Source: Escherichia phage LPEK22. Taken from it: 64,000 bases of DNA. A model generated the notes under the pieces. That model was given only the letters and a program-made list of their open reading frames with translations. It was not told where the DNA came from and searched no databases. The position numbers and the translations under genes are program-made. The stretch's first letter is position 1, and every line of letters begins with the position of its first letter. The stretch lies in sequence record OK283619.1. One strand, given 5' to 3'. This document shows, piece after piece, positions 7,011 to 61,006 of this stretch.

Positions 7011-7679
7011 ATGCAAGAGATCACTCTCTCCGAACGCACTTTACAACTGCTGGCTAACTTTGAAACCATCTGCCCCTCTATCGTTCTGGCACCTGGTAAA
7101 AAGTTGCGCACTGTTAACGATTCCAGTACAGTTATCGCTATTGCCGACATTGACGAAGACTTCCCGTTCGAATTCCCGATTCTGGATCTGACCAAATTGC
7201 TGGCAATCCAGCGTCTGCCGAGTTTTAAAGGCGGTAAAATTGAAATGTCGGAAGACCACATTTTGCTGAAAGGTGAAAACTCCCAACTGCAATTCTGGCG
7301 TTCCGCTAAAGAACTGACTGTCGTTCCGGCAGACAGCATCGATCTCCCGTCTGTAGAATTTGAAGCAACAGTCACTCCTGAAAAAATGAAAGAGCTGACC
7401 CGCGCATGTTCTACTCTGGGCCACAAAACTGTACGCCTGGTTGCCAGCGGCGGTAAAACTCGTCTGGTGGGCACGACCACTACTATCGACAATTCCAACG
7501 ATTACACTGTTGAGTTGGGTGAAACAACTCTGGGTGATTTTGCTATGCCTGTTGATGTGGTCAACCTGAAAATGATCGAAGGCAACTACGTGATCCGCGC
7601 CTGTGCCGAAATGCAACTGGTTAACTTCCAATCCGCAGACGGCACCATCAACTATTACGTCGGCATGCAGCTGGATTAA
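7011..7679 (+). CDS. 45: sliding clamp (gp45-like)
   Basis: About 222 aa immediately upstream of gp44/gp62/regA as in T4; RBS GAGGA; track start is TTG, ATG chosen. Confidence 0.8.
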   Translation: MQEITLSERTLQLLANFETICPSIVLAPGKKLRTVNDSSTVIAIADIDEDFPFEFPILDLTKLLAIQRLPSFKGGKIEMSEDHILLKGENSQLQFWRSAKELTVVPADSIDLPSVEFEATVTPEKMKELTRACSTLGHKTVRLVASGGKTRLVGTTTTIDNSNDYTVELGETTLGDFAMPVDVVNLKMIEGNYVIRACAEMQLVNFQSADGTINYYVGMQLD

Positions 7680-7709
7680 TCAATAACGATTCGGCGCTTT
7701 ATTATCGGT

Positions 7710-10548: not shown

Positions 10549-10572
10549 TATAATCCGTTATTCACTAAACAA

Positions 10573-10600
10573 CAGAGGCTATAATGGCCTCTGTTTTTGT
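10573..10600 (+). terminator. rho-independent terminator
   Basis: ACAGAGGC...GCCTCTGT hairpin followed by TTTTGT. Confidence 0.6.
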
Positions 10601-12228: not shown

Positions 12229-12257
12229 CTTTTCAATAAATCTTTTCAGCGTATATT
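12229..12257 (+). promoter_or_regulatory. early-promoter-like element: -35 CTTTTC, 17 bp, -10 TATATT
   Basis: Preceded by TTCAATAA motif; followed by leader hairpin and conserved initiation motif before ATG 12324. Confidence 0.4.
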
Positions 12258-16398: not shown

Positions 16399-16497
16399 TT
16401 TTCAAAAGTCTTTCAAAATCAATAACGTCCGGCAAATTGCTGGGCGTTTCAATTAACAAGCCAAGGTATAATGGTCTAATTGTAAAGCGAGGAAATC

Positions 16498-16857
16498 ATG
16501 TCCGTAAAAATGAAAGGTGTTGAATTCAACGCCTACTATAACGATGACGAATATTGGGAAAAGGGTGCTTGGCACGATGATCATTGCGTCAAAGTTAATG
16601 GAGAATACCGTGAAGAACTCGATGAAAATATTCCAGACGATGCTGATGTCGTAATTGAGTCAGGCACAGTTTATATCCCTGTAGCTGGAGAAAGTGGTGC
16701 TGAAGAGAAAGATATCCAGTTGGTCACTCATTTCAAGAATTGGCGTAAGAAAAAGAACTTTTCTTTCATTGTTGTGATTGTAAAGAAAGATAAGGCGTCG
16801 GAAGTCCGTGAAGCCCTGAAGAATATTTCTGGTGTCATGGAAGTGAAAGGGAATTGA
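16498..16857 (+). CDS. hypothetical acidic protein (119 aa)
   Basis: ORF with RBS GAGGAA. Confidence 0.45.
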   Translation: MSVKMKGVEFNAYYNDDEYWEKGAWHDDHCVKVNGEYREELDENIPDDADVVIESGTVYIPVAGESGAEEKDIQLVTHFKNWRKKKNFSFIVVIVKKDKASEVREALKNISGVMEVKGN

Positions 16858-19593: not shown

Positions 19594-19602
19594 TAATCCA
19601 TG

Positions 19603-19671
19603 AAATCCCCAATAATTATTGGGGATTTTTACTTTCAAAGGCTTTACTTGAATAAACATTTGCCGTATTAT
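19603..19671 (+). promoter_or_regulatory. terminator hairpin plus early promoter: -35 CTTTAC, 18 bp, -10 TATTAT
   Basis: Hairpin AAATCCCC/GGGGATTT with T-run, then CTTTAC...TATTAT 53 nt upstream of ATG 19725. Confidence 0.55.
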
Positions 19672-19724
19672 TCAATAACTGGCTAACGTGGGGTTGGTCA
19701 GAAATTGAATAGGTTGATTATAAC

Positions 19725-19964
19725 ATGTCAAACAAGAAAGTAGAAACGGCAGTAGAAATAGACCGCAATTGGGGCTTGCTCCGCGCTAAAGGATTCCGCC
19801 GTGTGTACATGACTAAGGAAGTCTATGCTTCGCGCCGAGATGTTATCATTAGCAAGAAAGGAAAAGTATGGGTTGCTGAAGAGGTTGATGCCGAAACGGG
19901 TGTCGTCGGTAAGGTTAAAGCCAAGGCGAATATTCTTTTCGCTCTTCTGAAGCATATCAATTAA
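19725..19964 (+). CDS. hypothetical basic protein (79 aa)
   Basis: ORF downstream of early promoter at 19642-19671. Confidence 0.45.
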   Translation: MSNKKVETAVEIDRNWGLLRAKGFRRVYMTKEVYASRRDVIISKKGKVWVAEEVDAETGVVGKVKAKANILFALLKHIN

Positions 19965-20023
19965 TTCTATAAATTATGGCGGGGTATGATTACCCCGCCG
20001 ATTTGAAATGCAGGAACTATACC

Positions 20024-20479
20024 ATGACCCGTATCAATGTTATTCCCGTTGAATCTCTTTGCGACCAACACCTCCTTGCCGAGTACAAAGAACTTGCGCC
20101 AGTTGTCCTTAACGTGGTGAATGGAAAACGCCGTAATCTCAAGGGCGCTCCAAAGCAGTACAAACTCAACGAAGGTCATGTGCTGTTCTTCCGCGACAAA
20201 CTCATTTATCTGATCGAGCGCTACGATCAGCTTGTTGCCGAACTGATTTCTCGTGGGTATGTTGTCAACTATCCTTCGCTCCGCAATCAGGTGACGTCTG
20301 ACAATCGACAGGAACTCGCGATCTATTTGAACGATTACCAACCGACCCAGGCAGCAGTAGAAGAGAATGCCGAGCGCATTGTCGAACGTCTGAATGGCAT
20401 GGGCAAGATCACGTATAACAGAACACCAGTAGATCCATCCTACATGGTGAACGTTATGAAACAAACATTCCAATTTTGA
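20024..20479 (+). CDS. denV: endonuclease V (pyrimidine dimer DNA glycosylase, DenV)
   Basis: MTRINVIPVESLCDQHLLAEYKELAPV matches T4 DenV N-terminus; start moved to internal ATG with conserved initiation motif. Confidence 0.88.
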   Translation: MTRINVIPVESLCDQHLLAEYKELAPVVLNVVNGKRRNLKGAPKQYKLNEGHVLFFRDKLIYLIERYDQLVAELISRGYVVNYPSLRNQVTSDNRQELAIYLNDYQPTQAAVEENAERIVERLNGMGKITYNRTPVDPSYMVNVMKQTFQF

Positions 20480-20807: not shown

Positions 20808-21257
20808 ATGTTCCTTACATCCTTTATTGACTGGATGAATATCATAAATGGCCTGAGGATTCCTGTTGGGAACCTCGGGCTTTCTCGTTCTTCTATGCCG
20901 CAAATCGATGCCGACAAACAAGAAGATTTTCACAAATATCTTGAAGACAACGGCGTGTCCATAGATGCTGCGCAAGTGCCCATCAAAATGCTTCGTCTTA
21001 CCCAGAACGAAATCAATAAAATGAAGGTCTGGAAGATTATGAAGCAGATCAGAAATAAGAAGCCCATGGGTCGAGTTTGGGTGTCTTCTGACAATTACGT
21101 TGTTGACGGGTCTCACCGATTTGTCGCTGCGTTGAACATGGACGGCAAACAGCGCATGAAGGTCTACAAAGTTGATTTGCCAGCGATGGAATTTGTTAAA
21201 CTCGCTAAACAGTTTCAGGGTGTGCGATACAGAACGGTCAGCGATACCCGTTTCTGA
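20808..21257 (+). CDS. ParB-like nuclease domain protein
   Basis: LRLTQNEIN...YVVDGSHRFVAALN resembles ParB/Srx N-terminal domain. Confidence 0.4.
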   Translation: MFLTSFIDWMNIINGLRIPVGNLGLSRSSMPQIDADKQEDFHKYLEDNGVSIDAAQVPIKMLRLTQNEINKMKVWKIMKQIRNKKPMGRVWVSSDNYVVDGSHRFVAALNMDGKQRMKVYKVDLPAMEFVKLAKQFQGVRYRTVSDTRF

Positions 21258-21336
21258 ATACGATAGTTTATTGAAACCCTTTACTCAACATGGTGACAGC
21301 CCTATCATTTTATCCAATGAAATAAGGAGAATCACC

Positions 21337-22026
21337 ATGAAACGTTTAATCATCGGGGTTGTGCTGGCTGGTCTGGCACTTCCTGCCACCGCCAAGCTGA
21401 ACTCCACAGGTGAAAAACTGTGGTCTGATCTTTCCTACTGTGCTGGGTTCTCCCAAGCCGTCGCTATAGACAAAACTGGTTCCATAGAGAACTTTGCTGA
21501 ACTCTGGACCACAGGTAATGTCACAGATGCCGTTGTAAATGCTGGTATTGAGTTTAATCGATATAAGCAAGGCGCGTTCAACCTGAAAGGATATATGAAC
21601 GACAAAGAATTTAACCGAGGAGGCATGGAGGCTGGCGATCTTATTATGACTGGTCGTATGGGTACACAAGGACGAATGACCGTAAGACAGTGCCGTTCTC
21701 TTCCTTCTCCAGCATTACAAAAAGGTGTGCAGGTTGGCCGACGTCAGCTGGATCTCATCAATGATGGCAACCAATGCATCAAGGTGTTTGAATATAGTGC
21801 CGACCAAGAATCAGATCGACGTTTGAAAAAGGAATGGCGGACTCGCGCCCTTGGCCTGAGAGCATGGCTGGTGGAAAATGATCATTATTATGAAGACCGT
21901 GTTCAGAATGGTTTGAAAGATCTTTCCACTAATTTGTCTGTCAATCTTGATGATCCAAGGCTTTCCCGTGAACTCAAGCAAACAAGAATTGACTGTGATA
22001 ATATGATGAAGGAGAACGAAAGATGA
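21337..22026 (+). CDS. secreted protein with Sec signal peptide (229 aa)
   Basis: Start at internal ATG with AAGGAG RBS; N-terminus MKRLIIGVVLAGLALPATA is a signal peptide. Confidence 0.5.
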   Translation: MKRLIIGVVLAGLALPATAKLNSTGEKLWSDLSYCAGFSQAVAIDKTGSIENFAELWTTGNVTDAVVNAGIEFNRYKQGAFNLKGYMNDKEFNRGGMEAGDLIMTGRMGTQGRMTVRQCRSLPSPALQKGVQVGRRQLDLINDGNQCIKVFEYSADQESDRRLKKEWRTRALGLRAWLVENDHYYEDRVQNGLKDLSTNLSVNLDDPRLSRELKQTRIDCDNMMKENER

Positions 22027-23184: not shown

Positions 23185-23198
23185 TTCAATAACATTAG

Positions 23199-23227
23199 GG
23201 CGGTTATTATTAAACCGCCTTTTATTT
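23199..23227 (+). terminator. rho-independent terminator
   Basis: GGCGGTT...AACCGCC hairpin followed by TTTTATTT. Confidence 0.6.
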
Positions 23228-29059: not shown

Positions 29060-29070
29060 GGATTATCACG

Positions 29071-29862
29071 ATGGGTATGAATTTTGTAGACAGGGGTGAT
29101 AACGTCACCAAATATTTCACAGACGAAGATAATGACCGTGTTGTTGGAATATTGAGAGATTGGATTCCGGCTCGCAAAAAGGCTTTGGCCGAAGGAACAC
29201 CCCTACCAAGAATCCCCAATTATGTGGCCATGAATGTTCAGATGATTATTAAGAACATGAGTATGCGCTACAACTATCGTGATTATCCATACCGCGAAGA
29301 CATGGTCAGTGAGGCCGTTGTCAACATCCTTCGTTACCTCCATACATTTGACGTCAGTCATATCGGCAAGAAAGGAAAAATCAATTTCTTCTCTTGGGTA
29401 ACGATGTGCGCCGATCGTTCATTCGCCAAGAAACTCACCAGTGAAGAAGAACACAATTATATCAAGTTGCGTTCATTTGAAGAAGCAGGTGGTTTCGCTG
29501 CATTATCAGATGACCCAGACTTCCAGCAACAGACATTCGTAGACAGCACTGGTATAACAATGGACTTCCGTGAGCGTATCGGAAATTTTGAAACTAAGAA
29601 AGAAGCACAGCGCGAAAAGGAACGCCAAAAGCAAATCGCCATCAAAGAAGAGGAAAAGAATAAGAAAATTCCTCGCGGTATACTTCAATGTCTCACAAAG
29701 AGTGAAAATACCATTACCGCCGACGCCGAAGATAATTCAGACTATGACTTCGGCTCTACTCAATTCAATCTGGAAGACGAAATATGTTCTATGGAACCAG
29801 ATTGGGAAGAAGCAAAGAAACGAGCATTAGAACGGGAGCAACAAAATAATGGCGATTGCTAA
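29071..29862 (+). CDS. 55: late-transcription sigma factor (gp55-like) with C-terminal extension
   Basis: Central block RYNYRDY...DMVSEAVVNILRYLHTFD...NFFSWVTMCADRSFAKKL parallels T4 gp55; 264 aa vs 185 aa. Confidence 0.65.
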   Translation: MGMNFVDRGDNVTKYFTDEDNDRVVGILRDWIPARKKALAEGTPLPRIPNYVAMNVQMIIKNMSMRYNYRDYPYREDMVSEAVVNILRYLHTFDVSHIGKKGKINFFSWVTMCADRSFAKKLTSEEEHNYIKLRSFEEAGGFAALSDDPDFQQQTFVDSTGITMDFRERIGNFETKKEAQREKERQKQIAIKEEEKNKKIPRGILQCLTKSENTITADAEDNSDYDFGSTQFNLEDEICSMEPDWEEAKKRALEREQQNNGDC

Positions 29863-30964
29863 AATAGGCGATTTACATATCGGGAGCCGTAATGGTTCCC
29901 GTTACGTTCGAGAATTCATAAAGAATTATCTCATCAATTATTTTATTCCAGAATTGGTTGACGCCGATATTAAAGAAGTGTGGCAATTTGGTGATACGTT
30001 TGATGTTCGCAAATTCATGTATGGTCGCGATAAAGATTGGTTGAAAGATGAATTGACGCCAGCGCTGCGCAAAGCAGGTATTAAATGGAATGGCATCGTC
30101 GGCAACCATGATATCACGTTAGAAGAGTCCAATCGCATTAACTGGCCTTCTTATCTTAATGAATTGGCACCGGATGTTTATCATTATTACAGCGAACCAA
30201 CTGAAGTAATGATTGAAGGTGTCAAGACCCTCCTACTGCCGTGGATTAACAAAGAGAACTATGATGCGTCCATTAAAGCGATACAAGATACAGACGCCAA
30301 GTACTGTTTTGCGCATCTGGAGTTGGCAGGGTTCAAAATGTATCAGTCCTCTATATGTGATAAAGGTCAGATCGACGTGGCGCTCCTTTCGAAATTCGAG
30401 CGCGTGGATACCGGACATTTCCATACCCGTTCGATGGAAGGTAACATTCAGTATATTGGGACTCCTTATCACCTTACCTGGGAAGACCACAAAGACGGGA
30501 CGAACCGAGGATTCTATGTAGACGACATGAATGGCGGGGAATTGTTTATCCCCAACAACGAACAACAAACGTTGTTCCGGTTCGTGGAATACGACTACAC
30601 GCAAATGTCTTCTGACACCGAAGGTAATTGGATCGACCCCGATTGGTTAAACAATGTTTTGGGTATTGAAGGGCAAATCGTTAAGGTGATTGTACAGAAC
30701 CGTGACAATGCCAAGCATTATGAAAAGTTCTGTGACGCATTGAAGCGCTGTAAATGCATCGATTACAACTTCATCGATCGGACGATTACTGTTGCTTCCG
30801 AGAAGGTAGAAGTCACTGAAGAGATGGTGGCGACTGATGCTGTGGAAGTCCTGAAGAAAGATATCCGCGCCGCCAATAATATCCAGCGCCCTGAAAATGT
30901 TTGCAAATTAGCAGAACAATTCTATAATGCTGCCCAACAACGCCTGAACACATTGGATGCATAA
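29849..30964 (+). CDS. 47: recombination endonuclease subunit (gp47, Mre11/SbcD-like)
   Basis: Phosphoesterase motifs GDLHIG, GDTFD, GNHD, GHFH; collinear with T4 gp47. Confidence 0.9.
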   Translation: MAIAKIGDLHIGSRNGSRYVREFIKNYLINYFIPELVDADIKEVWQFGDTFDVRKFMYGRDKDWLKDELTPALRKAGIKWNGIVGNHDITLEESNRINWPSYLNELAPDVYHYYSEPTEVMIEGVKTLLLPWINKENYDASIKAIQDTDAKYCFAHLELAGFKMYQSSICDKGQIDVALLSKFERVDTGHFHTRSMEGNIQYIGTPYHLTWEDHKDGTNRGFYVDDMNGGELFIPNNEQQTLFRFVEYDYTQMSSDTEGNWIDPDWLNNVLGIEGQIVKVIVQNRDNAKHYEKFCDALKRCKCIDYNFIDRTITVASEKVEVTEEMVATDAVEVLKKDIRAANNIQRPENVCKLAEQFYNAAQQRLNTLDA

Positions 30965-30966
30965 TA

Positions 30967-34361: not shown

Positions 34362-34393
34362 AAGGGCACTAAATATCACGTGCCCTTTATCTT
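34362..34393 (+). terminator. rho-independent terminator
   Basis: AAGGGCAC...GTGCCCTT hairpin followed by T-rich run. Confidence 0.6.
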
Positions 34394-35710: not shown

Positions 35711-35765
35711 ATATTCAATAAAAGGGGCAAAAGCCCCTTTACTTCTTCAATAACCCACGTATAAT
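35711..35765 (+). promoter_or_regulatory. terminator hairpin plus early promoter: -35 CTTTAC, 17 bp, -10 TATAAT
   Basis: AAAGGGGC-AAAA-GCCCCTTT hairpin fused to CTTTACttcttcaataacccacgTATAAT. Confidence 0.65.
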
Positions 35766-35813
35766 TCTAAACATAAGCAGTACGACACCAACTTGAAAAG
35801 CAGGAACTACATT

Positions 35814-36089
35814 ATGAAAATCATCCTCGACGCATATATCCGTTACGGCAGCAAATGGTTGATGGCCAAAGTTTACGACGGTGAAGAATTAGTCCACGCC
35901 CAAACCGCCCCTTCTGAACAATTGCGTGAAATTATGAAACGCGATTTTCCTACTGCTGAAATGATTGAACCTGCCAACCAAACCGAAGTTGACAAAGAAT
36001 GGGAACGCGAATGGAGTCCGGCGGCGTTGGCACAATTTGATAAGAATTACAACAATCGCCAAAACGCGTCTCGCCCGTTCCGTCGTTAA
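35814..36089 (+). CDS. hypothetical early protein (92 aa)
   Basis: Start at ATG after conserved AGCAGGAACTACATTATG motif, downstream of early promoter 35737-35765. Confidence 0.5.
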   Translation: MKIILDAYIRYGSKWLMAKVYDGEELVHAQTAPSEQLREIMKRDFPTAEMIEPANQTEVDKEWEREWSPAALAQFDKNYNNRQNASRPFRR

Positions 36090-38600: not shown

Positions 38601-39170
38601 ATGAAACCGTTTATCGAATATTTTAAAGAACAAGCTCAACAACCGCAAACTCATGGCGGCATACAAGGCAAAAGTGTAACCATCACCAAACAGGCCGACG
38701 GAACCCAATGGTGTACTGGTGCCACCGTGACCCAGATCACTCCAGATAATCAGGCCGACATCTATAATCTGGAATTGACTAACGGCAACACCACCAAAGT
38801 AAAACTCACACCGGACCAGGTTCATGCGGTTTCTGTGGGCAAAGATGTTGTTGCCGTTCATGACGGTTTTGAGTTCTTCTTTGGGAAAGATGCCAGCAAA
38901 GGTCAGGTCACAGAATCCTATGCCCAAGAATTGGCGAACATGGATAAGATGATCGGTAAAGCGCTGGGCGTTGGCAAATCTCGTAAAAGCGGTCGTACAG
39001 AGTTTGAATATTCCGGTATTCCTGGTATTGGAAAACCTGTCGCAATCGACTTCGGCGGAGAAGACGATCCATATGTAATTGTCACAGTCGCTGGCAAACA
39101 GCATGACATCAGTAAGGGGAAAACCCTAGCTGCGGACATTGCCAAATATATTGGCGTTAAACCTGTCTAA
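38601..39170 (+). CDS. hypothetical protein (189 aa)
   Basis: ORF with AGGAG RBS. Confidence 0.5.
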   Translation: MKPFIEYFKEQAQQPQTHGGIQGKSVTITKQADGTQWCTGATVTQITPDNQADIYNLELTNGNTTKVKLTPDQVHAVSVGKDVVAVHDGFEFFFGKDASKGQVTESYAQELANMDKMIGKALGVGKSRKSGRTEFEYSGIPGIGKPVAIDFGGEDDPYVIVTVAGKQHDISKGKTLAADIAKYIGVKPV

Positions 39171-39179
39171 GGAGGTTGT

Positions 39180-39422
39180 ATGAAAGGATTCCAGGACTTC
39201 CTCTTGAAGGAAGCAAAGGTTGACCATCGCCGCCTTGGGCAGCAGGGCATGTACGACATCACGGATGTTGGTCGTCCAACCAAAGGCGAGCTGATCGATT
39301 ACTACAATCGCAACGGTGATAAGCGGCAGGGGAAAGTGAAGTCCGTGAACGCGCAAGACATCATGACCCTGACAGACACCGACACGGGTGAAACCGTCAA
39401 GATGACTCTGGTCAAGCCGTGA
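39180..39422 (+). CDS. hypothetical protein (80 aa)
   Basis: ORF with GGAGG RBS; followed by strong terminator. Confidence 0.45.
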   Translation: MKGFQDFLLKEAKVDHRRLGQQGMYDITDVGRPTKGELIDYYNRNGDKRQGKVKSVNAQDIMTLTDTDTGETVKMTLVKP

Positions 39423-39426
39423 TTAC

Positions 39427-39458
39427 AATCCCCCTAAATACAGGGGGATTTTCTTTTT
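39427..39458 (+). terminator. rho-independent terminator
   Basis: AATCCCCC...GGGGGATT hairpin followed by TTCTTTTT. Confidence 0.7.
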
Positions 39459-39471
39459 AGGGGTAAATATC

Positions 39472-39825
39472 ATGGTCAATGCGAGTATATTCATCAACCG
39501 TGGACTGCTTGCTATAGCCCACTCTCATGCCCTCCACTTCGTTACAACGTCCTATGCCAAGCACAAGGCACTCGGGGAGTTCTACGGGGAACTGGAGGAC
39601 TTGCTAGACACCTTTACGGAAGCGTATATTGGTGCGGGTGGTATATACATTCCAGGATTCGAGAACATCAAATTGTACAATCCTGAACCGATATCGTATA
39701 TCAACAGCGTGGTCATCGACGTTAATGGGATCTACAATCAGTGTGATAGCCATTTACAAAACACGCTTGACGAAATCAAAACTTTGTGCTATCAAACGAT
39801 TTACAAACTGAAGCAATTGTCCTAA
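39472..39825 (+). CDS. hypothetical protein (117 aa)
   Basis: ORF only. Confidence 0.45.
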   Translation: MVNASIFINRGLLAIAHSHALHFVTTSYAKHKALGEFYGELEDLLDTFTEAYIGAGGIYIPGFENIKLYNPEPISYINSVVIDVNGIYNQCDSHLQNTLDEIKTLCYQTIYKLKQLS

Positions 39826-39888: not shown

Positions 39889-40506
39889 ATGGGCAAAATC
39901 TTTATACCTTCTCACTCAGAAGGTTGTCAAATCGCTGCAAAATTTCTACACAAACAAATGAATTGTGGTGCTGTGTTCGTAGAACCAAATTCATTCGATA
40001 ATCGTGAATCCCCTGACGCCATCGGGTTCAGACCTGGGGGTTGTTCTATATTAATGGAAGTTAAAGTCTCCCGCGCCGACTTCCTGACAGACAAAAAGAA
40101 ACCTCATCGCATGAATCCTTCCATAGGCATGGGAGCATATCGTTTCTATGTTTGCCCAGCAGATGTTATTAAAATTGAAGACCTCCCTCCCAAGTGGGGT
40201 TTGTTGTACTTCACCCCTAGAAAATCTTTGAAGCCCGTTCACGTTCCGAATATGCAATATTCCTCTTTGTCTTCACCGGAACATTATGCATCATATTTGT
40301 CTAAATCTTTGGACAAAAGAAGACCTACAGATATCCCTCATTATCTATTAGGGTACAAACAGATGCTGGAAGAATTCGCCCACTTTGAACGCAATCAGGT
40401 TGCGGAACAAAATATTTTGTATGGGGCTTGGCGACAGCTTTGCATAGCTCAAAGTCGCGGGGTGGATTATAATGTGACAGAAGTGTTCCAGAGGCCAAAT
40501 ATCTAA
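39889..40506 (+). CDS. hypothetical protein, possible PD-(D/E)xK nuclease fold
   Basis: DAIGFRPGGCSILMEVKVS resembles a D...ExK nuclease motif (weak); directly upstream of primase. Confidence 0.35.
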   Translation: MGKIFIPSHSEGCQIAAKFLHKQMNCGAVFVEPNSFDNRESPDAIGFRPGGCSILMEVKVSRADFLTDKKKPHRMNPSIGMGAYRFYVCPADVIKIEDLPPKWGLLYFTPRKSLKPVHVPNMQYSSLSSPEHYASYLSKSLDKRRPTDIPHYLLGYKQMLEEFAHFERNQVAEQNILYGAWRQLCIAQSRGVDYNVTEVFQRPNI

Positions 40507-41570
40507 TGAAATTCTTGGACGAACAATACATCAATTTTCTCGCCCCCCGACTTGATAAATTCAGCTGGGAACGTGTTGGCGCTGTCGCCAAATTTCGTTG
40601 CCCATTATGCGGGGATTCTAAGAAGAGTGCCAACAAGCGTCGTGGTCACTTCTTTTATGATCGTGATGACGATGTGTTTCGTTTCAAGTGCCACAACTGT
40701 AATGAAATGAGCGGTTGGGCGTTTGAATTCTGGTTGAAGAAGTTTGACGAGCGTCTGTATAATGAATACAACCTTGAAAAATTCAGGATCATGGGGGATA
40801 CCAGTTCCCGCCCGTTACAAAAACTCAAACCATTACAGCGCCTGACCCAGACAGCACGTATCGGTTCTCAGGTCGCCAAACGGGATGAAGAGCACCTTGG
40901 GAATATGATACGCCTTGATCTTCTTGACCGTGATCATATCGCCCGTCGTTATGTTGAAGGCAGGGGAATGCCGGAGAGCACGTTATCTTTGTTGTATTAC
41001 AGCAGAAATTTTCGTCAAGATCTTCTGAGTTTTGAAACGGATGTTGAGAAGCAAAAGAAGATACCCGAAGATGAGCGGCTGGTAATCCCATTCTGGACCC
41101 AAGACGGGCGCATGAAGATAGTTCAGGGGCGCGCATTCGGCGATAACCTTCCTGATGGGGTATTACGGTATGCCACTGTCAAGCCTAAGAACGAAGACAC
41201 TAAAATCTACGGGGAAGAGCGCATCATTTGGAACAAAACAAAGTTGGTAGTAGAAGGTCCAATTGATAGCTTGTTTCTACCTAATTGTCTTGCGACTGCC
41301 GATGCCGACTTATTAAGTGCTAAGGGAGACATCTATATCCCCGATAACCAATACAGGAACAAACAAGTTTGTGACGGTATACAGAAGATGATAGACAGCG
41401 GAGTCAAAGTCGTTCTGTTTCCACCGGAAATACCGTGGAAGGATATCAATGATATGGTTCGCCCCGACAAGGGAAATATCCCGATACGTGATCTGCTTCA
41501 GATCATAGCCAAGAACGTATATCAGGGACTGTCGGCGTCCTTACGATTTTCTGACTTGAGGAAGATATGA
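40506..41570 (+). CDS. 61: DNA primase (gp61-like)
   Basis: Zinc ribbon FRCPLCGDSK...CHNCN, VVEGPIDSLF, KDINDM; collinear with T4 gp61. Confidence 0.9.
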   Translation: MKFLDEQYINFLAPRLDKFSWERVGAVAKFRCPLCGDSKKSANKRRGHFFYDRDDDVFRFKCHNCNEMSGWAFEFWLKKFDERLYNEYNLEKFRIMGDTSSRPLQKLKPLQRLTQTARIGSQVAKRDEEHLGNMIRLDLLDRDHIARRYVEGRGMPESTLSLLYYSRNFRQDLLSFETDVEKQKKIPEDERLVIPFWTQDGRMKIVQGRAFGDNLPDGVLRYATVKPKNEDTKIYGEERIIWNKTKLVVEGPIDSLFLPNCLATADADLLSAKGDIYIPDNQYRNKQVCDGIQKMIDSGVKVVLFPPEIPWKDINDMVRPDKGNIPIRDLLQIIAKNVYQGLSASLRFSDLRKI

Positions 41571-41804: not shown

Positions 41805-41829
41805 AGGCCTCATTCTACGAGGCCTTTTA
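41805..41829 (+). terminator. rho-independent terminator
   Basis: AGGCCTC-ATTCTAC-GAGGCCT hairpin followed by TTTT. Confidence 0.6.
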
Positions 41830-41868
41830 AAATACTTCAAAAATAATTTAAAAATTTATTGAAAAAGA

Positions 41869-41898
41869 CTTTACTCTTCAATAATCATGCACTATTAT
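41869..41898 (+). promoter_or_regulatory. early promoter: -35 CTTTAC, 18 bp, -10 TATTAT
   Basis: Same CTTTAC-tcTTCAATAA spacer architecture; preceded by terminator at 41805-41829. Confidence 0.55.
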
Positions 41899-41975
41899 AG
41901 TTCACATAGGGCGGTACACAACACCCCGCCGAATGAAAAGTGAAACGACCCAACTACATTATGAGGAATTACATC

Positions 41976-42464
41976 ATGGCTACTACCAAAACTCTGATCA
42001 CCAACGGCACCATCTCTTTTGAACTGAACACCGAAGTTGCAAAAGTTGAAATGTTCCGCATCGCTCAGGCAGCTGGCTTCACTGGTGGCAAAACTTCCTT
42101 CATGAATCTGCTGAACGGCAAAGTGAAAGCGACCAACGGCTTCACCCTGGTAGAGCAGGTTGTCGTAGACAAAGCCGTGGTTGCCAAAACTGCTGACAAG
42201 GTTGGCATGCTGAAAGACCTGGGCCATGACATCCACGTTGTCGAAGCGAACACCGAAACTTACGGCACCATCGTAGTCGGCAAAGGCCGCATTCAGCTGA
42301 ACCCGCTGAACAACGGAACCTTCTCCGTGATGGTATTCCCGAAAAAGGGTTATGACAACAGTGATATCGTGAAAGCGGCTGGTGGCGAAGCAAAAGCTCA
42401 GTACGTCAAAATGGGTAAACTGACCGCCAAAGACGTTCAGACCCTGGTAAGCAAACTGGCTTAA
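41976..42464 (+). CDS. hypothetical early protein (162 aa)
   Basis: Start at ATG after conserved initiation motif, downstream of early promoter 41869-41898; Ala/Val/Gly/Lys-rich. Confidence 0.55.
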   Translation: MATTKTLITNGTISFELNTEVAKVEMFRIAQAAGFTGGKTSFMNLLNGKVKATNGFTLVEQVVVDKAVVAKTADKVGMLKDLGHDIHVVEANTETYGTIVVGKGRIQLNPLNNGTFSVMVFPKKGYDNSDIVKAAGGEAKAQYVKMGKLTAKDVQTLVSKLA

Positions 42465-42482: not shown

Positions 42483-42523
42483 AAACTCCCCTCCTTATTC
42501 AGATTTTTGGTAGGAGATTCAAA

Positions 42524-42646
42524 ATGGACGAAGAAGTTCTGTATTGCCCGCATTGTGGTTCGGAAATGGAATTTGAAGACGGTGATTGCCCGCATTGCGG
42601 TGAGCACATGGACTCCTGGAAAGATAGTGAAGGAGACGACGAATGA
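42524..42646 (+). CDS. zinc-ribbon mini-protein (40 aa), below ORF-track cutoff
   Basis: Translated manually: MDEEVLYCPHCGSEMEFEDGDCPHCGEHMDSWKDSEGDDE; RBS TAGGAG. Confidence 0.4.
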   Translation: MDEEVLYCPHCGSEMEFEDGDCPHCGEHMDSWKDSEGDDE

Positions 42647-42840
42647 CCGCATACGAAATGTGCATCAACAACATCGCATTCACTTTGTTCAACCGCAACC
42701 CGAACATGGTGAACTCAAGCCCCCCGAGCGCATTCGATTTCTCCCTCGGGCTGGCAGTGGGGTTCTGTAAGGACGCTCAGGAAGTGGTGATGGACATCGC
42801 CGCTGCCGTCGCTAAACTCCAGAGGGAGGAAGCAGCATGA
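42643..42840 (+). CDS. hypothetical small protein (65 aa)
   Basis: ATGA overlap with upstream mini-ORF. Confidence 0.3.
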   Translation: MTAYEMCINNIAFTLFNRNPNMVNSSPPSAFDFSLGLAVGFCKDAQEVVMDIAAAVAKLQREEAA

Positions 42841-44836: not shown

Positions 44837-44920
44837 ATACCACACGAACTTCCCCGCCGCCTTCAATCCATGGAGGCGGCGTATAATAACAGCCTGCATA
44901 AACACAAACCGAGGATCGCT

Positions 44921-47197
44921 ATGATTAACATCATAAAGCGGGACGGATCTTCTGTCCCCTTTGACATTGAAAAACTCCATACCGTTATTGAACGAGCATG
45001 TGACGGCCTTGAAGGAGTATCGGTGTCTGAGGTGGAAGCTGCATCGAAGATCCAATTCACCGATAACATGAAAACCGAACGCATTCAGGATATCATTATC
45101 CAAGCTGCGGCCACCTTAATTTCTGTTGATAAACCCAACTATCAATATGTTGCTGCCCGCCTGAAGTCGTATGACCTGCGCAAGGTTGTCTATGGTCAGT
45201 ACAAGCCACCTCATTTGCTGGATATCTTTGCAAAGAACACCAAGCTGGGTGTTTATGACCGCGAATTCCTCGAACTTTACTCTAAAGAAGAATTCGAAGA
45301 ACTTAACACAGTCATCAACCACAAACGCGACAAGAATTTCACTTGGGCAGCAATGGGCCAGCTGACTCAAAAATATCTTTTGCGTGATCGTTCTTCTGAC
45401 AGCAAAGTGTATTATGAAACCCCTCAAGTCATGTACATGGCAATCGCTATGGCATTATTCTCAGCGTGGGATAAAGAAAGCAGACTGACAATGGTGAAGA
45501 AGTTCTATGAATACGCCAGTACAGGCAAATTCAGTCTTCCAACACCTATTATGTCCGGCGTCCGCACCCCGACCCGACAGTTCAGCTCTTGTGTATTGAT
45601 CAAAACTGGTGACACATTGGACTCAATTAATGCCACTGCGAAAAGCATCGTGGATTATGTTTCCAAACGTGCTGGCATCGGATTCGATGTTGGGGCAATT
45701 CGTGGCATCGGTAGCCCTATCCGTAAAGGGGAAATGGTCCATACAGGTCTGGTTCCATTCATCAAGTATTTGACTGGTGCCCTGAAGTCTTGCTCTCAAG
45801 GCGGTATCCGTGGTGGATCGGCAACATGCTATGTTCCCATCTGGCATTATCAATTTGATGATGTCGTTGTTCTCAAAAACAACCGTGGATTGGAAGAGAA
45901 CCGTGAACGCCGTATCGACTATGGGATTCAGATTAACCGCGTCATGTTCGAGCGCCTGGTGAACAAACAGCCTCTATACCTGTTTGATCCAAAAGACAAC
46001 CGCGAAATGTATGAAGCATTTTTCGCAGACGTCAATAAATTCCGCGAAATGTACGACAATATGATCAAGGCCGCCGACGCCGGGTTATGTCGTTCCAAAA
46101 AGCTGCAAGCTGAAGAAGTGTTCCAAATGCTACTAGACCAGCGTTCTGACACTGGACGGATCTACATCGCATTCGTTGATCACATGAACGAGTATAGTCC
46201 GTTCAATTTGGACACGATTTATAGCTCTAATCTGTGTTTAGAAATCGCGCTTCCGACTCGTGAGTTCCAACAGTATGATGATGAAGATGGTCGCATTGCC
46301 CTGTGTACACTCGCATCATTTAACCTGACGGCGTTTGAAGATCCAACAGAAATGGAAGATGTTGCTTTCGTTCTGGTTTCAGCTTTGGATATGTTGTTGG
46401 AATATCAGGACTACCCAGCTCGCCAAGCCCGTTTGGCCGTAGAAGAATATCGTCCTCTGGGTATCGGTATCGTCAACGTCGCACATTTCCTGGCCAAGAA
46501 TTTCACGGGTTATGGATCGCCTATCGGATTAGAACTTCTAGACAAGTGGATGGCGCATCTTCATTTCTACTTGGTCAAAGCGTCCAACCGTCTGGCCATG
46601 CGTTTCGGATCTTGTAAGAAATCAACTATCCATGATTCCGGATTTGTAACAGCCGACCTTCAGCCTCTCCCGCTGGACATCCTACCCAATGGCAAAAAGC
46701 CTGTTGGGCAAGCCTATGGTCTTGACTGGGAAGGTCTTAAGCAGAACCTATCCGAGTATGGGATCCGTAACGCCACGTTGTTAGCCGTAGCACCAACTGA
46801 AAGCTCCTCTCAGGTGCTGAACGCAACGAACGGTATAGAGCCACCCAAAGGCCTCATCAGTATCAAAGGCAGCAAGGATGGCGTCTACAAGCAGATCGTT
46901 CCGGACGTTGAAACCCTTGGTCCTCTATATGACCTGAAATGGAATCTGGATTGTATTGAATACCTGAAGACGGCTGCGGTCATACAACGTTGGGTAGATC
47001 AATCTATCAGTACCAACACATGGTATGACCCAGAGAAATATCCAGAAGGCAAGATCCCGCGCTCTCTTATGATGCAGGATATTCTGTCTTTCTACATGTG
47101 GGGTGGTAAAACTCTGTATTACAACACCAACAAAGACTCCAAGGAAGATGAAGAGTTGAAACAAGTTGAAGAAATTTGTGATACCTGTGTTGTTTGA
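44921..47197 (+). CDS. nrdA: ribonucleotide reductase large subunit (class Ia NrdA)
   Basis: N-terminal ATP-cone (IIKRDGSSVPFDIEKL), catalytic Cys/Asn/Glu motifs (SSCVLI, NLCLEIALP), C-terminal redox tail CDTCVV. Confidence 0.95.
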   Translation: MINIIKRDGSSVPFDIEKLHTVIERACDGLEGVSVSEVEAASKIQFTDNMKTERIQDIIIQAAATLISVDKPNYQYVAARLKSYDLRKVVYGQYKPPHLLDIFAKNTKLGVYDREFLELYSKEEFEELNTVINHKRDKNFTWAAMGQLTQKYLLRDRSSDSKVYYETPQVMYMAIAMALFSAWDKESRLTMVKKFYEYASTGKFSLPTPIMSGVRTPTRQFSSCVLIKTGDTLDSINATAKSIVDYVSKRAGIGFDVGAIRGIGSPIRKGEMVHTGLVPFIKYLTGALKSCSQGGIRGGSATCYVPIWHYQFDDVVVLKNNRGLEENRERRIDYGIQINRVMFERLVNKQPLYLFDPKDNREMYEAFFADVNKFREMYDNMIKAADAGLCRSKKLQAEEVFQMLLDQRSDTGRIYIAFVDHMNEYSPFNLDTIYSSNLCLEIALPTREFQQYDDEDGRIALCTLASFNLTAFEDPTEMEDVAFVLVSALDMLLEYQDYPARQARLAVEEYRPLGIGIVNVAHFLAKNFTGYGSPIGLELLDKWMAHLHFYLVKASNRLAMRFGSCKKSTIHDSGFVTADLQPLPLDILPNGKKPVGQAYGLDWEGLKQNLSEYGIRNATLLAVAPTESSSQVLNATNGIEPPKGLISIKGSKDGVYKQIVPDVETLGPLYDLKWNLDCIEYLKTAAVIQRWVDQSISTNTWYDPEKYPEGKIPRSLMMQDILSFYMWGGKTLYYNTNKDSKEDEELKQVEEICDTCVV

Positions 47198-48605: not shown

Positions 48606-48612
48606 TCTTTCA

Positions 48613-48660
48613 AAGCCCCTCAATGAGGGGCTTTACTTTTGAAACCTTTCCGCCTATACT
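48613..48660 (+). promoter_or_regulatory. terminator hairpin plus early promoter: -35 CTTTAC, 18 bp, -10 TATACT
   Basis: Hairpin AAGCCCCTC/GAGGGGCTT whose 3-prime arm runs into the CTTTAC -35. Confidence 0.6.
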
Positions 48661-48711
48661 TCCCAGTAATTTATTGGCAAACGCCACAAATTGAATAGCA
48701 GGAACTATATC

Positions 48712-48945
48712 ATGACCAACTCTGAAATATATCATGCTTCTATGCATTATCACGACCTACGCGCCCGTCCAGGACACGCAAAACAAAAAGCATTCTGGGT
48801 GGCAGAACTCAGATTACGCCGTGCTGTCGTTAACCACCAAATAATCATGAATCGGAAAAACGACAAATCACCGTTGTTGGCAGATTCTTATCTTGAACTC
48901 CGCACAGCCTATGAACAAGCCAAACAGCACGTAATAGGAGCATAA
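48712..48945 (+). CDS. hypothetical early protein (77 aa)
   Basis: Start at ATG after conserved AGCAGGAACTATATCATG motif, downstream of early promoter 48631-48660. Confidence 0.45.
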   Translation: MTNSEIYHASMHYHDLRARPGHAKQKAFWVAELRLRRAVVNHQIIMNRKNDKSPLLADSYLELRTAYEQAKQHVIGA

Positions 48946-50193: not shown

Positions 50194-51819
50194 TCATGCG
50201 CCTTTACCACCAAAATTGCCGCCGTTATCCTCTAACTCCGGTTTTATATCAATTGGACCTGGGCCTGTAGTTGTTACAGGAGTTGCCCCCGCACGTGAGG
50301 CGGCGCGACCAGCGCCTTCAGCATATTTGATGTTGCCTTCAATAGTCTGCGCCACCGACAACTTATCACAAACTATTTCACTAGCCAGTATTTTAGGCAC
50401 TTTCAAAGTATTGGAAACTTCCAACATTTCACAGATGAGACGCAACACGTTCTGTGCCTGTATCTCAGCCAATTGGGAAAATTTCATCAACGCTGTTCCA
50501 GCGACCACATTGGAATAGTTAGAAGAGTGTAAGTGGTAAACTTCTCCTTTCTTGCGCTGTACTTCAGTCCCACCAATTGTCAGGTTATGATCACCCCCCA
50601 CATAATAACGTTTGTCGAACATCGTCAGGTCATAATGATCTTTGACTGATTTATTAACAACATCACCGTCAGGAAGCATTTGCTTGTAAGACCCAGAAGA
50701 GTGCATCCAATGCAAACGTTCCCCGCCTGGAGTGTCATCGACCTCCATAATATGCCCAGCGCGAGAAGCCATAACATTGTTGTATGGATAACGAGACCCC
50801 CCAGCCGAAGGAACCGATACCTCTCCTGTGTTGTCAATATCCTGAACACGACCAGAAGGAGGCGGTGTTTCTTGGACTTTCGGGGTACGATCCGGAATAG
50901 GTTCAGACCATTTACCATTTTGTTGTGCCGGAGCTGCTGAAGCTGTAGTTGCTGGACCTGGCCAACGATAACCCAACACGGATGAGCGGCTAAAACGGCT
51001 CACCTTCACAGAATCGGATTGGTTTCCCCCGATACACCAAACGTAGTTGGCGTCAAATTTCTGAACGAATGCAACGTGACCGAATGTCGGGTTGTTCCCG
51101 CGCCGGAACACTACAACAGCGCCGTAACGTGGTTCTGACAGAGGAGACCCCCATTGTAAATATGAACGAGCCAAAGCAGAACGTGTTGATGTATATCCGG
51201 CCTGTATCAGAACCCATCCGACAAACGACGCACACCAACTAACTTCATCTTCTGACGCCCCCAGGGAAGTTGTCTTATGATATTCCAATATCCTTGGGTT
51301 GTTATTGAACTTACCAGAATATTCTTTGACACCCAATTCCCCACGAGCCACGGTCATCCACTTCTCAGGATCATATCCGTCTACTGGTGGTTGTGGATCC
51401 GGTTGCGGTTCATCCTCAATCTTAACAGGAACATTCTCGACGGCATTATACTTCTGCCTTTCTATAGATTGAACGACCTGACCCAGCGCCAATGGGTTTG
51501 TATCTGACCCATCTGTTGGTGTTGCTGCTGGCCATACCCATGCAATACGGATGTTCTGATATGCTTCATCCAAAGCAAACCCCATGACGTCAGAGCCGAC
51601 AGTGATACCCGTCGGAGACCAGCCTAAACCTGCCGAGGAGGCGTTAGATGCTGGCATAAGCATTTTACCCCAAGGCAATAATTCGGTAGGCAGGAGAGTG
51701 GTATCCTCCGTGTGTACCCCATAGATGCGTACTGCGACGCGCCCGTTTTGATCGGGATCATTCACGTCTTCAACGCGCCCGTAAAACCAACGCAAGTTGT
51801 CTAACATATTGAAACCCAT
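50194..51819 (-). CDS. 5: baseplate central spike (gp5-like) carrying a CHAP/NlpC-P60-type peptidase domain
   Basis: N-terminal OB motif VEDVNDPDQNGRVAVRIYGVH; middle CHAP-like WCASFVGW (Cys) and GHVAFV (His); C-terminal beta-helix-like repeats; late promoter upstream. Confidence 0.75.
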   Translation of the reverse strand: MGFNMLDNLRWFYGRVEDVNDPDQNGRVAVRIYGVHTEDTTLLPTELLPWGKMLMPASNASSAGLGWSPTGITVGSDVMGFALDEAYQNIRIAWVWPAATPTDGSDTNPLALGQVVQSIERQKYNAVENVPVKIEDEPQPDPQPPVDGYDPEKWMTVARGELGVKEYSGKFNNNPRILEYHKTTSLGASEDEVSWCASFVGWVLIQAGYTSTRSALARSYLQWGSPLSEPRYGAVVVFRRGNNPTFGHVAFVQKFDANYVWCIGGNQSDSVKVSRFSRSSVLGYRWPGPATTASAAPAQQNGKWSEPIPDRTPKVQETPPPSGRVQDIDNTGEVSVPSAGGSRYPYNNVMASRAGHIMEVDDTPGGERLHWMHSSGSYKQMLPDGDVVNKSVKDHYDLTMFDKRYYVGGDHNLTIGGTEVQRKKGEVYHLHSSNYSNVVAGTALMKFSQLAEIQAQNVLRLICEMLEVSNTLKVPKILASEIVCDKLSVAQTIEGNIKYAEGAGRAASRAGATPVTTTGPGPIDIKPELEDNGGNFGGKGA

Positions 51820-59801: not shown

Positions 59802-59878
59802 TATTCACGCCAGTCCGCGCTGATACAGCGTTCCGTTGTCTAACACAGAAGTGTTAACCAACTTTTCAATAAAAAGTG

Positions 59879-59907
59879 GTTTACATCTTCTAAAAAGGCA
59901 GTATATT
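59879..59907 (+). promoter_or_regulatory. early promoter: -35 GTTTAC, 17 bp, -10 TATATT
   Basis: Preceded by TTCAATAAAAAGTGG; 67 nt upstream of ATG 59975. Confidence 0.5.
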
Positions 59908-60934: not shown

Positions 60935-61006
60935 TTTAATTCAGAAGCGTTCAATAGATAAAGGGGCTGCTATAATAGCAGCTCCTTTTGTTTGTTGGAG
61001 CATGTC

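Follow-up and report, generated by a model that had tools for sequence, protein, structure and literature searches.

Candidate early promoters, often fused to terminator-type hairpins, recur in the genome of a ViI-like Kuttervirus

We analysed a 64,000-nucleotide (nt) window of Escherichia phage LPEK22 (record OK283619.1), taking as the focal site positions 35711-35765, where a hairpin and a promoter-like sequence lie together upstream of a small gene. This intergenic cassette, like every promoter-type element of the window located below unless a strand is named, reads on the plus strand. It has an upstream box, TTCAATAA, at 35714-35721, in the position of an UP element, where ATTCAATAAAA is invariant in the four genera compared (Kuttervirus, Agtrevirus, Limestonevirus and Taipeivirus). 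A GC-rich hairpin, AAAGGGGC-aaaa-GCCCCTTT, occupies 35721-35740 (folding free energy, dG, -13.6; z-score -3.6), and its T-run doubles as part of a −35 hexamer, the 3′ arm overlapping the CTTTAC at 35737-35742. A 17-base-pair (bp) spacer holding a further TTCAATAA at 35746-35753 separates this hexamer from the −10 TATAAT at 35760-35765. The promoter so composed (35737-35765), which we term class A, is followed by a conserved leader, CATAAGCAGTACGACACCAACTTGAAAAGCAGGAACTACATT, running through the ATG at 35814 (35766-35816), found in four genera and belonging to repeat families D1, D2 and D5. Across the genera the hairpin stem is invariant and its loop variable; the −35 is likewise invariant, the 3′ part of the spacer varies, and the −10 reads TATAAT, TATATT or TATACT. 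The record of phage LIMEstone1 marks a terminator at the orthologous hairpin, and a simple terminator scan of the window called the hairpin on the minus strand only. The gene starting at ATG 35814 encodes 91 amino acids of a PHROG family of unknown function, and is replaced in phages MK-13 and XF4, where homology ends at 35817/35818, just past the start codon. An original prediction, made from the letters of the window, had described this architecture at 35711-35765 (a hairpin running into the −35, TTCAATAA in a spacer of 17-18 bp, then a TATAMT −10), and the focal site fits it in full.

A 2-kb probe around the focal site retrieved 231 phage records, all from Ackermannviridae and mostly Kuttervirus, with Salmonella phages S117 and STP55 as best matches (99.8% identity). 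Aligned to the whole S117 genome (MH370370), the window fell into six blocks covering ~60 kb at 97.6-99.0% identity with few indels between them, plus a seventh of 349 nt at 89.7%. On the strength of the S117 alignment and the probe matches, we assign the window to a ViI-like Kuttervirus (Ackermannviridae), outside the T4-type phages in the strict sense. The T4-type context originally proposed thus gives way to a separate family, though one with many T4-like genes in common (gp44, 45, 46, 47, 55, 61, regA and regB). Syntenic regions were compared in four further Kuttervirus phages (kage, CBA120, ViI and Mutine) and in MK-13 (Agtrevirus), the Dickeya phages XF4 and LIMEstone1 (both Limestonevirus) and Menlow (Taipeivirus).

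The promoter part of the cassette recurs far more often than chance allows. A regular-expression scan for the class A pattern, [CG]TTTAC-N17/18-TAT[ACT][ACT]T, gave 8 matches in the window where 100 dinucleotide shuffles averaged 0.26±0.52, and the whole S117 genome held 10 for an expectation of 0.6; the pattern was also enriched over shuffles in each of six related loci, always on the transcribed strand. All 8 window copies lie on the plus strand and 7 are intergenic, with −35 starts at 28, 19642, 21279, 35737, 41869, 48631 and 59879; the eighth, at 50202 (plus strand), falls within a minus-strand gene and is probably fortuitous. The sites listed by the original prediction (11-60, 19603-19671, 35711-35765, 41805-41898 and 48613-48660, with promoter-only versions at 12229 and 59879) were all found where it had placed them, and the genome-wide scan bears out the promoter part of its composite motif.

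Five class A sites (19642, 21279, 35737, 41869 and 48631) have an orthologue in every genus compared, the sole exception being the 48631 promoter of XF4, which is interrupted by a homing-endonuclease gene. At these five sites the −35 hexamer shows no variation across four genera, the −10 is always TATNNT (TATAAT, TATATT, TATACT, TATTAT or TATCAT), and variation is free in the hairpin loops and in the 3′ half of the spacer. Purifying selection of this kind across four genera is the classic footprint of what is probably a functional promoter. The seven intergenic copies have the form of sigma-70-like promoters, with a −35, a spacer of ~17 bp and a −10, and they combine AT-rich upstream DNA with a Shine-Dalgarno sequence and start codon at the 3′ end, a feature of the promoter-early stem-loop elements (PeSLs) of other phages.

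We therefore read the sites as phage promoters that depend on host sigma-70 and form one family in this ViI-like Kuttervirus; most likely they are early promoters, and we give this reading a probability of about 0.8. The repeated motif belongs to the usual punctuation of phage gene control and is often joined to a terminator-type hairpin. Its proposed anatomy comprises AT-rich upstream DNA often carrying TTCAATAA or the inverse box TTATTGAA, then (C/G)TTTAC(T), 17-18 bp, TATNNT, and a leader of ~45-75 nt ending in the ribosome-binding region GCAGGAACTAyAtCATG. Transcription reading through from the upstream unit would stop at the hairpin; the host sigma-70 holoenzyme, aided by the AT-rich upstream DNA, would re-initiate a few bases downstream at (C/G)TTTAC-N17/18-TATNNT; and the conserved leader of ~50 nt would supply a standard ribosome-binding site, so that each small accessory gene or gene group would be insulated and have its own expression. 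Kuttervirus and the other ViI-like phages find wide use in biocontrol, detection and therapy, and their early transcription programme is undescribed; the promoter-plus-leader consensus offers testable transcription start sites as well as parts for engineering these phages.

Several observations weigh against this account. A promoter scan found no TGn extended −10 at 35738, 41870 or 48632, and no class A copy occurs in the S117 regions of opposite transcription, from which it follows that class A is not the only early promoter type. The T-tracts after hairpins 35721, 41805 and 48612 are interrupted, none of the three was called as a plus-strand terminator by the simple scan, and the Mutine annotators left the orthologues of 35721 and 48612 unmarked. 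LIMEstone1 labels the 19642 orthologue "early" and those of 35737 and 41869 "middle". We found no transcript mapping in the literature for any member of Ackermannviridae. Finally, ViI-type virion DNA is described as carrying hypermodified thymidines, a caveat for the recognition of such T-rich elements.

The other class A sites vary around the focal arrangement. The cassette at 15-108 has TTCAATAA at 15-22, GTTTAC at 28-33, TATACT at 51-56 and an ATG at 106; its hairpin (23-32/42-51; dG -14.0, z -5.2) spans the −35 and the spacer, including a TTCAATAA at 37-44, rather than lying upstream. At 19602-19727, a terminator hairpin (19602-19629) ends 12 nt before the −35 (CTTTAC, 19642-19647), an 18-bp spacer with TTGAATAA leads to TATTAT at 19666-19671, TTCAATAA stands at 19671-19678 and the ATG at 19725; the orthologue is a "putative early promoter" overlapping a terminator in LIMEstone1, and the terminator is annotated in Mutine. 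The cassette at 48612-48714 resembles the focal one in that its hairpin (48612-48634) runs into the −35 (CTTTAC, 48631-48636); an 18-bp spacer without TTCAATAA precedes TATACT at 48655-48660, the ATG lies at 48712, and the stem shows compensatory changes (CG to GC, UA to CG) among relatives. At 41805-41978, the hairpin (41805-41825) sits 43 nt upstream of CTTTAC at 41869-41874, beyond an AT-rich, UP-like region with TTATTGAA at 41856-41863; TTCAATAA lies in the spacer at 41877-41884, TATTAT at 41893-41898 and the ATG at 41976. This element is conserved in four genera, and its LIMEstone1 orthologue is annotated as a "putative middle promoter" plus terminator. Some 11 nt after its −10, a leader hairpin at 41909-41931 (GGCGG...CCGCC) keeps its stem and varies its loop in four genera; it may be a 5′-terminal stabilising stem-loop of the messenger RNA (mRNA), although the single-sequence fold reaches a z of only -1.8.

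Two copies have no hairpin: 21268-21339, conserved in four genera, with the inverted box TTATTGAA at 21268-21275, CTTTAC at 21279-21284, an 18-bp spacer, TATCAT at 21303-21308 and an ATG at 21337; and 59865-59907, with TTCAATAA upstream at 59865-59872, GTTTAC at 59879-59884, a 17-bp spacer and TATATT at 59902-59907. In 5 of the 7 intergenic copies, an RNA hairpin attributed to the upstream transcription unit thus directly precedes the promoter or extends across it, and these five hairpins are stable (dG -12.2 to -16.6 kcal/mol, z -3.0 to -5.2). At two, 35737 and 48631, the T-run of the putative terminator is itself the −35 (GCCCC-TTTAC). The single architecture originally claimed for five sites accordingly holds only in part: the hairpin runs into the −35 at only two of them, and TTCAATAA lies in the spacer at three. 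Of its promoter-only versions, 59879 stands; 12229 lacks a −35 at 17 bp, its sequence being TTCAATAA-N12-TATATT, the class B arrangement described below. An unbiased repeat search paired 29-84 with 35738-35793 (56 nt, 80% identical); the longest exact run between class A copies is 16 nt (sites 11-60 and 35711-35765), most being 8-11 nt. Outside the window, S117 carries at 30926-30965 a class A promoter directly 3′ of a terminator hairpin in which CTTTACTTCAATAAAA is tandemly doubled; the duplication looks like replication or recombination slippage inside the element.

The top family of the unbiased search was the leader and ribosome-binding sequence TGAAAnGCAGGAACTAyAyCATGA, which the original prediction had overlooked. 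Copies lie at 86-112, 20004-20030, 35794-35820, 41941-41967 and 48692-48718 in the window, and 6 of the 8 copies of the ribosome-binding motif in S117 follow a promoter of class A or B at a distance of 45-75 nt. No Rfam family matched anywhere in the window, and the conserved leaders are therefore not a described RNA family. Their Shine-Dalgarno sequence is AGGAAC rather than GGAG, which may matter because the phage has homologues of RegB and RegA; in T4, these two proteins act on the initiation regions of early mRNAs. The genes directly 3′ of class A sites are small and of unknown function.

The closest published parallel is the PeSL, defined for the T4-like phages RB49/phi1, T4/PST and KVP40/nt-1 (PMC2839356, Arbiol et al. 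2010; PMC4122927, Comeau et al. 2014), with the T4 and PST consensus TTTACW-N17-TAYWAT and a stem-loop upstream. The likeness seen by the original prediction is well founded: both sets combine an AT-rich region, a GGGG...CCCC-type stem-loop just upstream and a sigma-70-type promoter with a TTTAC −35 and essentially the same consensus, followed by a Shine-Dalgarno sequence and ATG; both occur in many copies per genome before small genes of unknown function, and some gene swaps end within the element. The differences are that the phage here belongs to Ackermannviridae rather than to the Tevenvirinae or T4 superfamily core; that its hairpin may overlap the −35, span the spacer, lie 12-43 nt upstream or be absent; that its copies are syntenic in four genera and show no breakpoint enrichment; and that a longer conserved leader belongs to the unit. 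T4 early promoters, described as UP/−35/−10 "uber" promoters, likewise share with class A a GTTTAC-type −35 in place of TTGACA, a near-consensus −10, a 17-bp spacer, AT-rich UP-like upstream DNA and a place before small genes of the host-takeover type; they differ in that class A lacks a TGn extended −10 and that TTCAATAA recurs in its spacer or upstream. As for modulation of the T4 Alt type, relatives of LPEK22 have an "RNA polymerase ADP-ribosylase" gene in a swapped cassette at 20024.

Earlier work on this family had touched on individual sites. The CBA120 paper judged early promoters not identifiable by informatics (PMC3184105), and the promoters recovered in the AG3 and CBA120 papers came to only about eight, of the TTGACA type. 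For LIMEstone1, five early and five middle promoters were proposed by similarity to T4 (PMC3296691, Adriaenssens et al. 2012), and its GenBank record (HE600015) gives a promoter plus terminator at three sites orthologous to ours and a terminator only at a fourth. The orthologues of 19603-19671, 35711-35765 and 41805-41898 are there putative promoters overlapping or adjoining factor-independent terminators; a family-wide motif, a leader, a TTCAATAA box class and a PeSL interpretation do not figure in that annotation. The Mutine and Menlow records annotate terminators and no promoters, and the LIMEstone1 and Mutine annotators disagree on terminators at orthologous hairpins. Our literature search found no description of a TTCAATAA motif or of PeSLs for Ackermannviridae. 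The abstract of the Viunalikevirus genus paper is said to mention "conserved regulatory sequences", so an earlier description there is possible.

The box TTCAATAA stands as an independent motif of intergenic DNA. It has 39 copies in S117 against 10.7±2.8 expected, 23 of them in the non-coding DNA that makes up ~9% of the genome (p = 8e-15), and all 9 plus-strand copies in the window are intergenic. It had been described as a conserved spacer element, a view that its variable placement contradicts: it occupies the spacer at three of the five listed sites, 6, 8 or 10 bp from the −10; boxes in UP position occur in either orientation (TTCAATAA at 15, 35714 and 59865, TTATTGAA at 21268 and 41856); and it is missing from class A site 48631 and, in Kuttervirus, from 21279. 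In S117 the distance from its 7-mer TCAATAA to the next TATNNT peaks at 12 bp, and TCAATA[AG]-N11-13-TATNNT occurs 15 times against 0.25 expected. Allowing one mismatch in the box, the arrangement TTCAATAA-N12±1-TATNAT, which we term class B, was found 7 times in the window (~0.5 expected), every time on the plus strand and in intergenic DNA, ending 4-66 nt upstream of a start codon, and none of the seven has a −35 at the proper distance.

These seven are ATCAATAA-N13-TATTAT at 7679-7705, upstream of the clamp-loader gene (gp44 homologue); TTCACTAA-N11-TATAAT at 10561-10585, whose −10 is the loop of a hairpin (CAGAGGC/GCCTCTG, then a T-run; dG -15.9); TTCAATAA-N12-TATATT at 12232-12257, the 12229 of the original prediction; TTCAATTA-N11-TATAAT at 16448-16472, 26 nt upstream of ATG 16498; the site at 19965-20026, with box TTCTATAA at 19965-19972, 12 bp and TATGAT at 19985-19990, before denV (ATG 20024); TTCAATAA-N12-TATTAT at 23185-23210, where a terminator hairpin, GGGCGGTT/AAACCGCC, holds the −10 in its loop and has a T-run after it (dG -14.4); and TTCAATAG-N13-TATAAT at 60950-60976, its −10 in a strong hairpin loop (dG -28.6) upstream of the thymidylate-synthase cluster. 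The orthologues of 12232 in ViI and XF4 place the box 13 and 12 bp from the −10, respectively, and have a CTTTAC 28 bp from it, too far for a −35. At most class B sites the spacer pairs with sequence beyond the −10 in a GC-rich hairpin that has a T-run after it, such that the −10 is the terminator loop (10572-10593, 19978-19999, 23197-23221 and 60962-60985 in the window; 148803, 153419, 156413 and 82313 in S117). The hairpin at 19978-19999 (dG -19.8), topped by its −10 and followed by leader GATTTGAAATGCAGGAACTATACC, is kept in 7 phages through G-U changes only, with no core pair broken, and the loop of the 23185 orthologues is TATCAT or TATAAT in four genera. Across genera the class B loop hexamer stays TATNAT, although other hairpins vary in their loops.

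Downstream of class B sites lie the clamp loader, the denV slot, the thymidylate-synthase cluster, an open reading frame (ORF) in the transfer-RNA region, and the regions of the ligase and the helicase loader. The class is conserved across genera, and no relative examined carries a class B annotation, the LIMEstone1 record included. Their geometry recalls T4 middle promoters, in which the MotA box lies 12±1 bp upstream of the −10 and sigma is appropriated by MotA/AsiA: class B shares with these an 8-9-bp box in place of the −35, 12±1 bp from a strict −10, and a position before replication and nucleotide-metabolism genes. It departs from them in that the box is TTCAATAA or a one-mismatch variant, unrelated to the MotA consensus (a/t)(a/t)(a/t)TGCTTtA (PMC2988021), and that the −10 is often a terminator-hairpin loop; at the focal and other class A sites, moreover, the box stands 6-10 bp from the −10, alongside a −35. 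We tentatively propose, as something rather less probable than its negation, that TTCAATAA serves as the −30 box of a second, previously undescribed promoter class of Ackermannviridae, box-N12±1-TATNAT without a −35. If so, this candidate class would point to an unidentified regulator, whether an activator yet to be described or some new way of redirecting sigma-70; termination and re-initiation would share ~30 bp, with the new transcript beginning within the 3′ arm and escaping its own terminator.

Other roles for the box were discarded. It is not a stop-codon context, because it comes after stop codons, and reading TTCAAT as a weak −35 leaves a spacer of only 13-15 bp (14 bp at the commonest N12). 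Nor is it a late promoter: it does not stand before structural genes and differs from CTAAATA/TATAAATA. Those late-type elements form a set of their own. CTAAATA occurs 6 times on the plus strand of the window and never on the minus strand, with sites at 34369 and 39434 (in terminator-hairpin loops), 38569, 4768 and 54176, one of them abutting a 3′ arm. LIMEstone1 marks the orthologues of 34369 and 39434 as putative −10 signals of late promoters, and CTAAATA occupies terminator loops as class B −10 hexamers do. TATAAATA lies upstream of structural genes at 1591 (plus strand), 53168 and 57971 (both minus strand).

We then compared gene content around the elements, listing indels and replacements of at least 40 nt from local BLAST chains against the eight relatives. 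Homology ends exactly at the ATG after the leader at 20024, 35814, 48712, 16498 and 23242, and breakpoints fall inside or next to promoters at 19704, 21239-21246 and 48639-48644. In the slot of denV, the endonuclease V gene (20024-20479), CBA120 and MK-13 carry the ADP-ribosylase gene, the swap starting at 20027-20029; Mutine has an unannotated gene of the same 507-nt size, counted with that swap, and Menlow a different, unannotated gene. Homology around this swap stops on the left at the ATG and on the right at the stop codon. Downstream of 48631, the gene has been replaced or deleted from 48720, just past its ATG; in XF4 an 817-nt homing-endonuclease gene (38700-39518 of region L010) lies between the −35 and the −10 of the orthologous promoter, and the first gene after it (window 48712-48945) is deleted. 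ViI and Mutine have an extra ORF inserted at 19704, within the leader, in CBA120 a 298-nt insertion with an extra ORF stops ~35 nt short of the 21279 promoter, and six relatives have breakpoints at 16495-16498, next to class B site 16448. On their far, right-hand side the swaps meet ordinary gene junctions and no second element.

The original prediction had expected the elements at synteny breakpoints and had offered them as an explanation of the non-T4 gene order; neither idea held up. Automatic gene calls proved unreliable for start codons; the junction table was built on a hand-curated gene list: 61 junctions, scored for a breakpoint within ±12 nt and compared by one-sided Fisher tests. Class A junctions had breakpoints in 4 of 5 cases and other junctions in 29 of 50 (p = 0.33; the numbers are small); pooling classes A and B gave 8 of 11 (p = 0.29), and comparison with other long intergenic regions (9 of 15) gave p = 0.40. 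Breakpoints within Kuttervirus were no different (class A 2/5 and A plus B 6/11 against 19/50; p = 0.64 and 0.25), and the other genera taken alone likewise showed no enrichment. As the elements occupy the same syntenic positions in four genera, they cannot explain a gene order differing from that of T4. Swaps that start at the ATG after a conserved leader are suggestive of a role in recombination, which they do not demonstrate. On the simplest reading, the conserved promoter and leader form a homology anchor, kept by selection, at the left edge of several replacements, with no need for a dedicated shuffling device.

Alternative explanations differ in how much of this they can accommodate. That the motif is chance, or a compositional artefact of AT-rich intergenic DNA, might seem arguable from a generic sigma-70 scan, which has poor specificity, recovering three sites among 52 matches where 32 were expected in 20 kb. 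The specific pattern, however, exceeds dinucleotide shuffles 20- to 30-fold, runs in the direction of transcription and is conserved between genera to the single base while adjoining bases vary; we reject chance on the shuffle counts, the plus-strand bias and the cross-genus conservation, and give it almost no credence. It is quite unlikely, if much less so, that the hairpins are something other than terminators: stabilisers of RNA 3′ or 5′ ends, processing signals, or DNA-level structures that sit beside promoters by coincidence. The interrupted T-tracts and absent plus-strand calls at 35721, 41805 and 48612 would suit such a role, as would the hairpin at 23-51 within the promoter itself and the RegB and RNase H homologues that the phage encodes. 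Against this, substitutions to G-U that preserve pairing point to RNA structure, a GC stem with a T-run is the standard form of an intrinsic terminator, two independent annotation teams (LIMEstone1 and Mutine) placed terminators at several orthologues, and phage AG3 is reported to have ~40 intergenic terminators.

The box raises the further prospect that sites bearing it, the focal one included, are activator-dependent "middle" promoters, at which a phage or host factor binds TTCAATAA and which switch after early proteins appear. Its over-representation and concentration in non-coding DNA, its invariance at the focal site in four genera, its recurrence 12±1 bp from a −10 without a −35 (the geometry of the T4 MotA box) and the "middle" label given to two LIMEstone1 orthologues all speak for such a switch. 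Yet the focal and other class A sites have a good −35 at 17-18 bp; the box stands at varying distances, in either orientation or not at all, unlike a positioned activator site; its upstream copies fit an AT-rich UP element; and MotA/AsiA homologues are reported absent from these phages (by the CBA120 paper, PMC3184105). We consider this doubtful, and only slightly less doubtful that the repeated promoter, stem-loop and leader are PeSL-type recombination modules, preferred crossover sites that drive genome plasticity, perhaps via mini-circles. The anatomy of published PeSLs, the homology ends at five post-leader ATGs with others inside or beside promoters, and the tandem CTTTACTTCAATAAAA of S117, a slippage of the type described for degraded PeSLs, would all fit such modules. 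They sit poorly with the absence of breakpoint enrichment, with right-hand swap ends that meet no second element, with the many indels that consist of inserted homing-endonuclease genes or fall at plain gene junctions, with synteny in four genera and with exact runs between copies too short to exceed 16 nt; selection on a regulatory region would likewise leave homology ending at the ATG. The data do not demonstrate that the motif drives gene shuffling, and they reveal no new genome-shuffling mechanism; a family of host-dependent promoters, most likely early, remains our preferred account.

Elsewhere in the window, relatives carry insertions of 290-1000 nt that LPEK22 lacks, at 39418-39469, 29064-29078, 40497-40510, 44888-44924 and 46235-46239, most of them at plain gene junctions. 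Homing endonucleases are annotated in those at 29064-29078, 40497-40510 (XF4) and 44888-44924; the MK-13 insertion at 40497-40510, an opposite-strand ORF at 39418-39469 and an insertion inside nrdA at 46235-46239 have no such annotation. Conversely, a 318-nt segment with a small ORF at 42517-42836 is absent from all eight relatives and present in ~15 of 156 Kuttervirus records (SeHz-1, at 99.1% identity, BSP101, moki and Se-B); this presence/absence polymorphism lies at neither promoter class.

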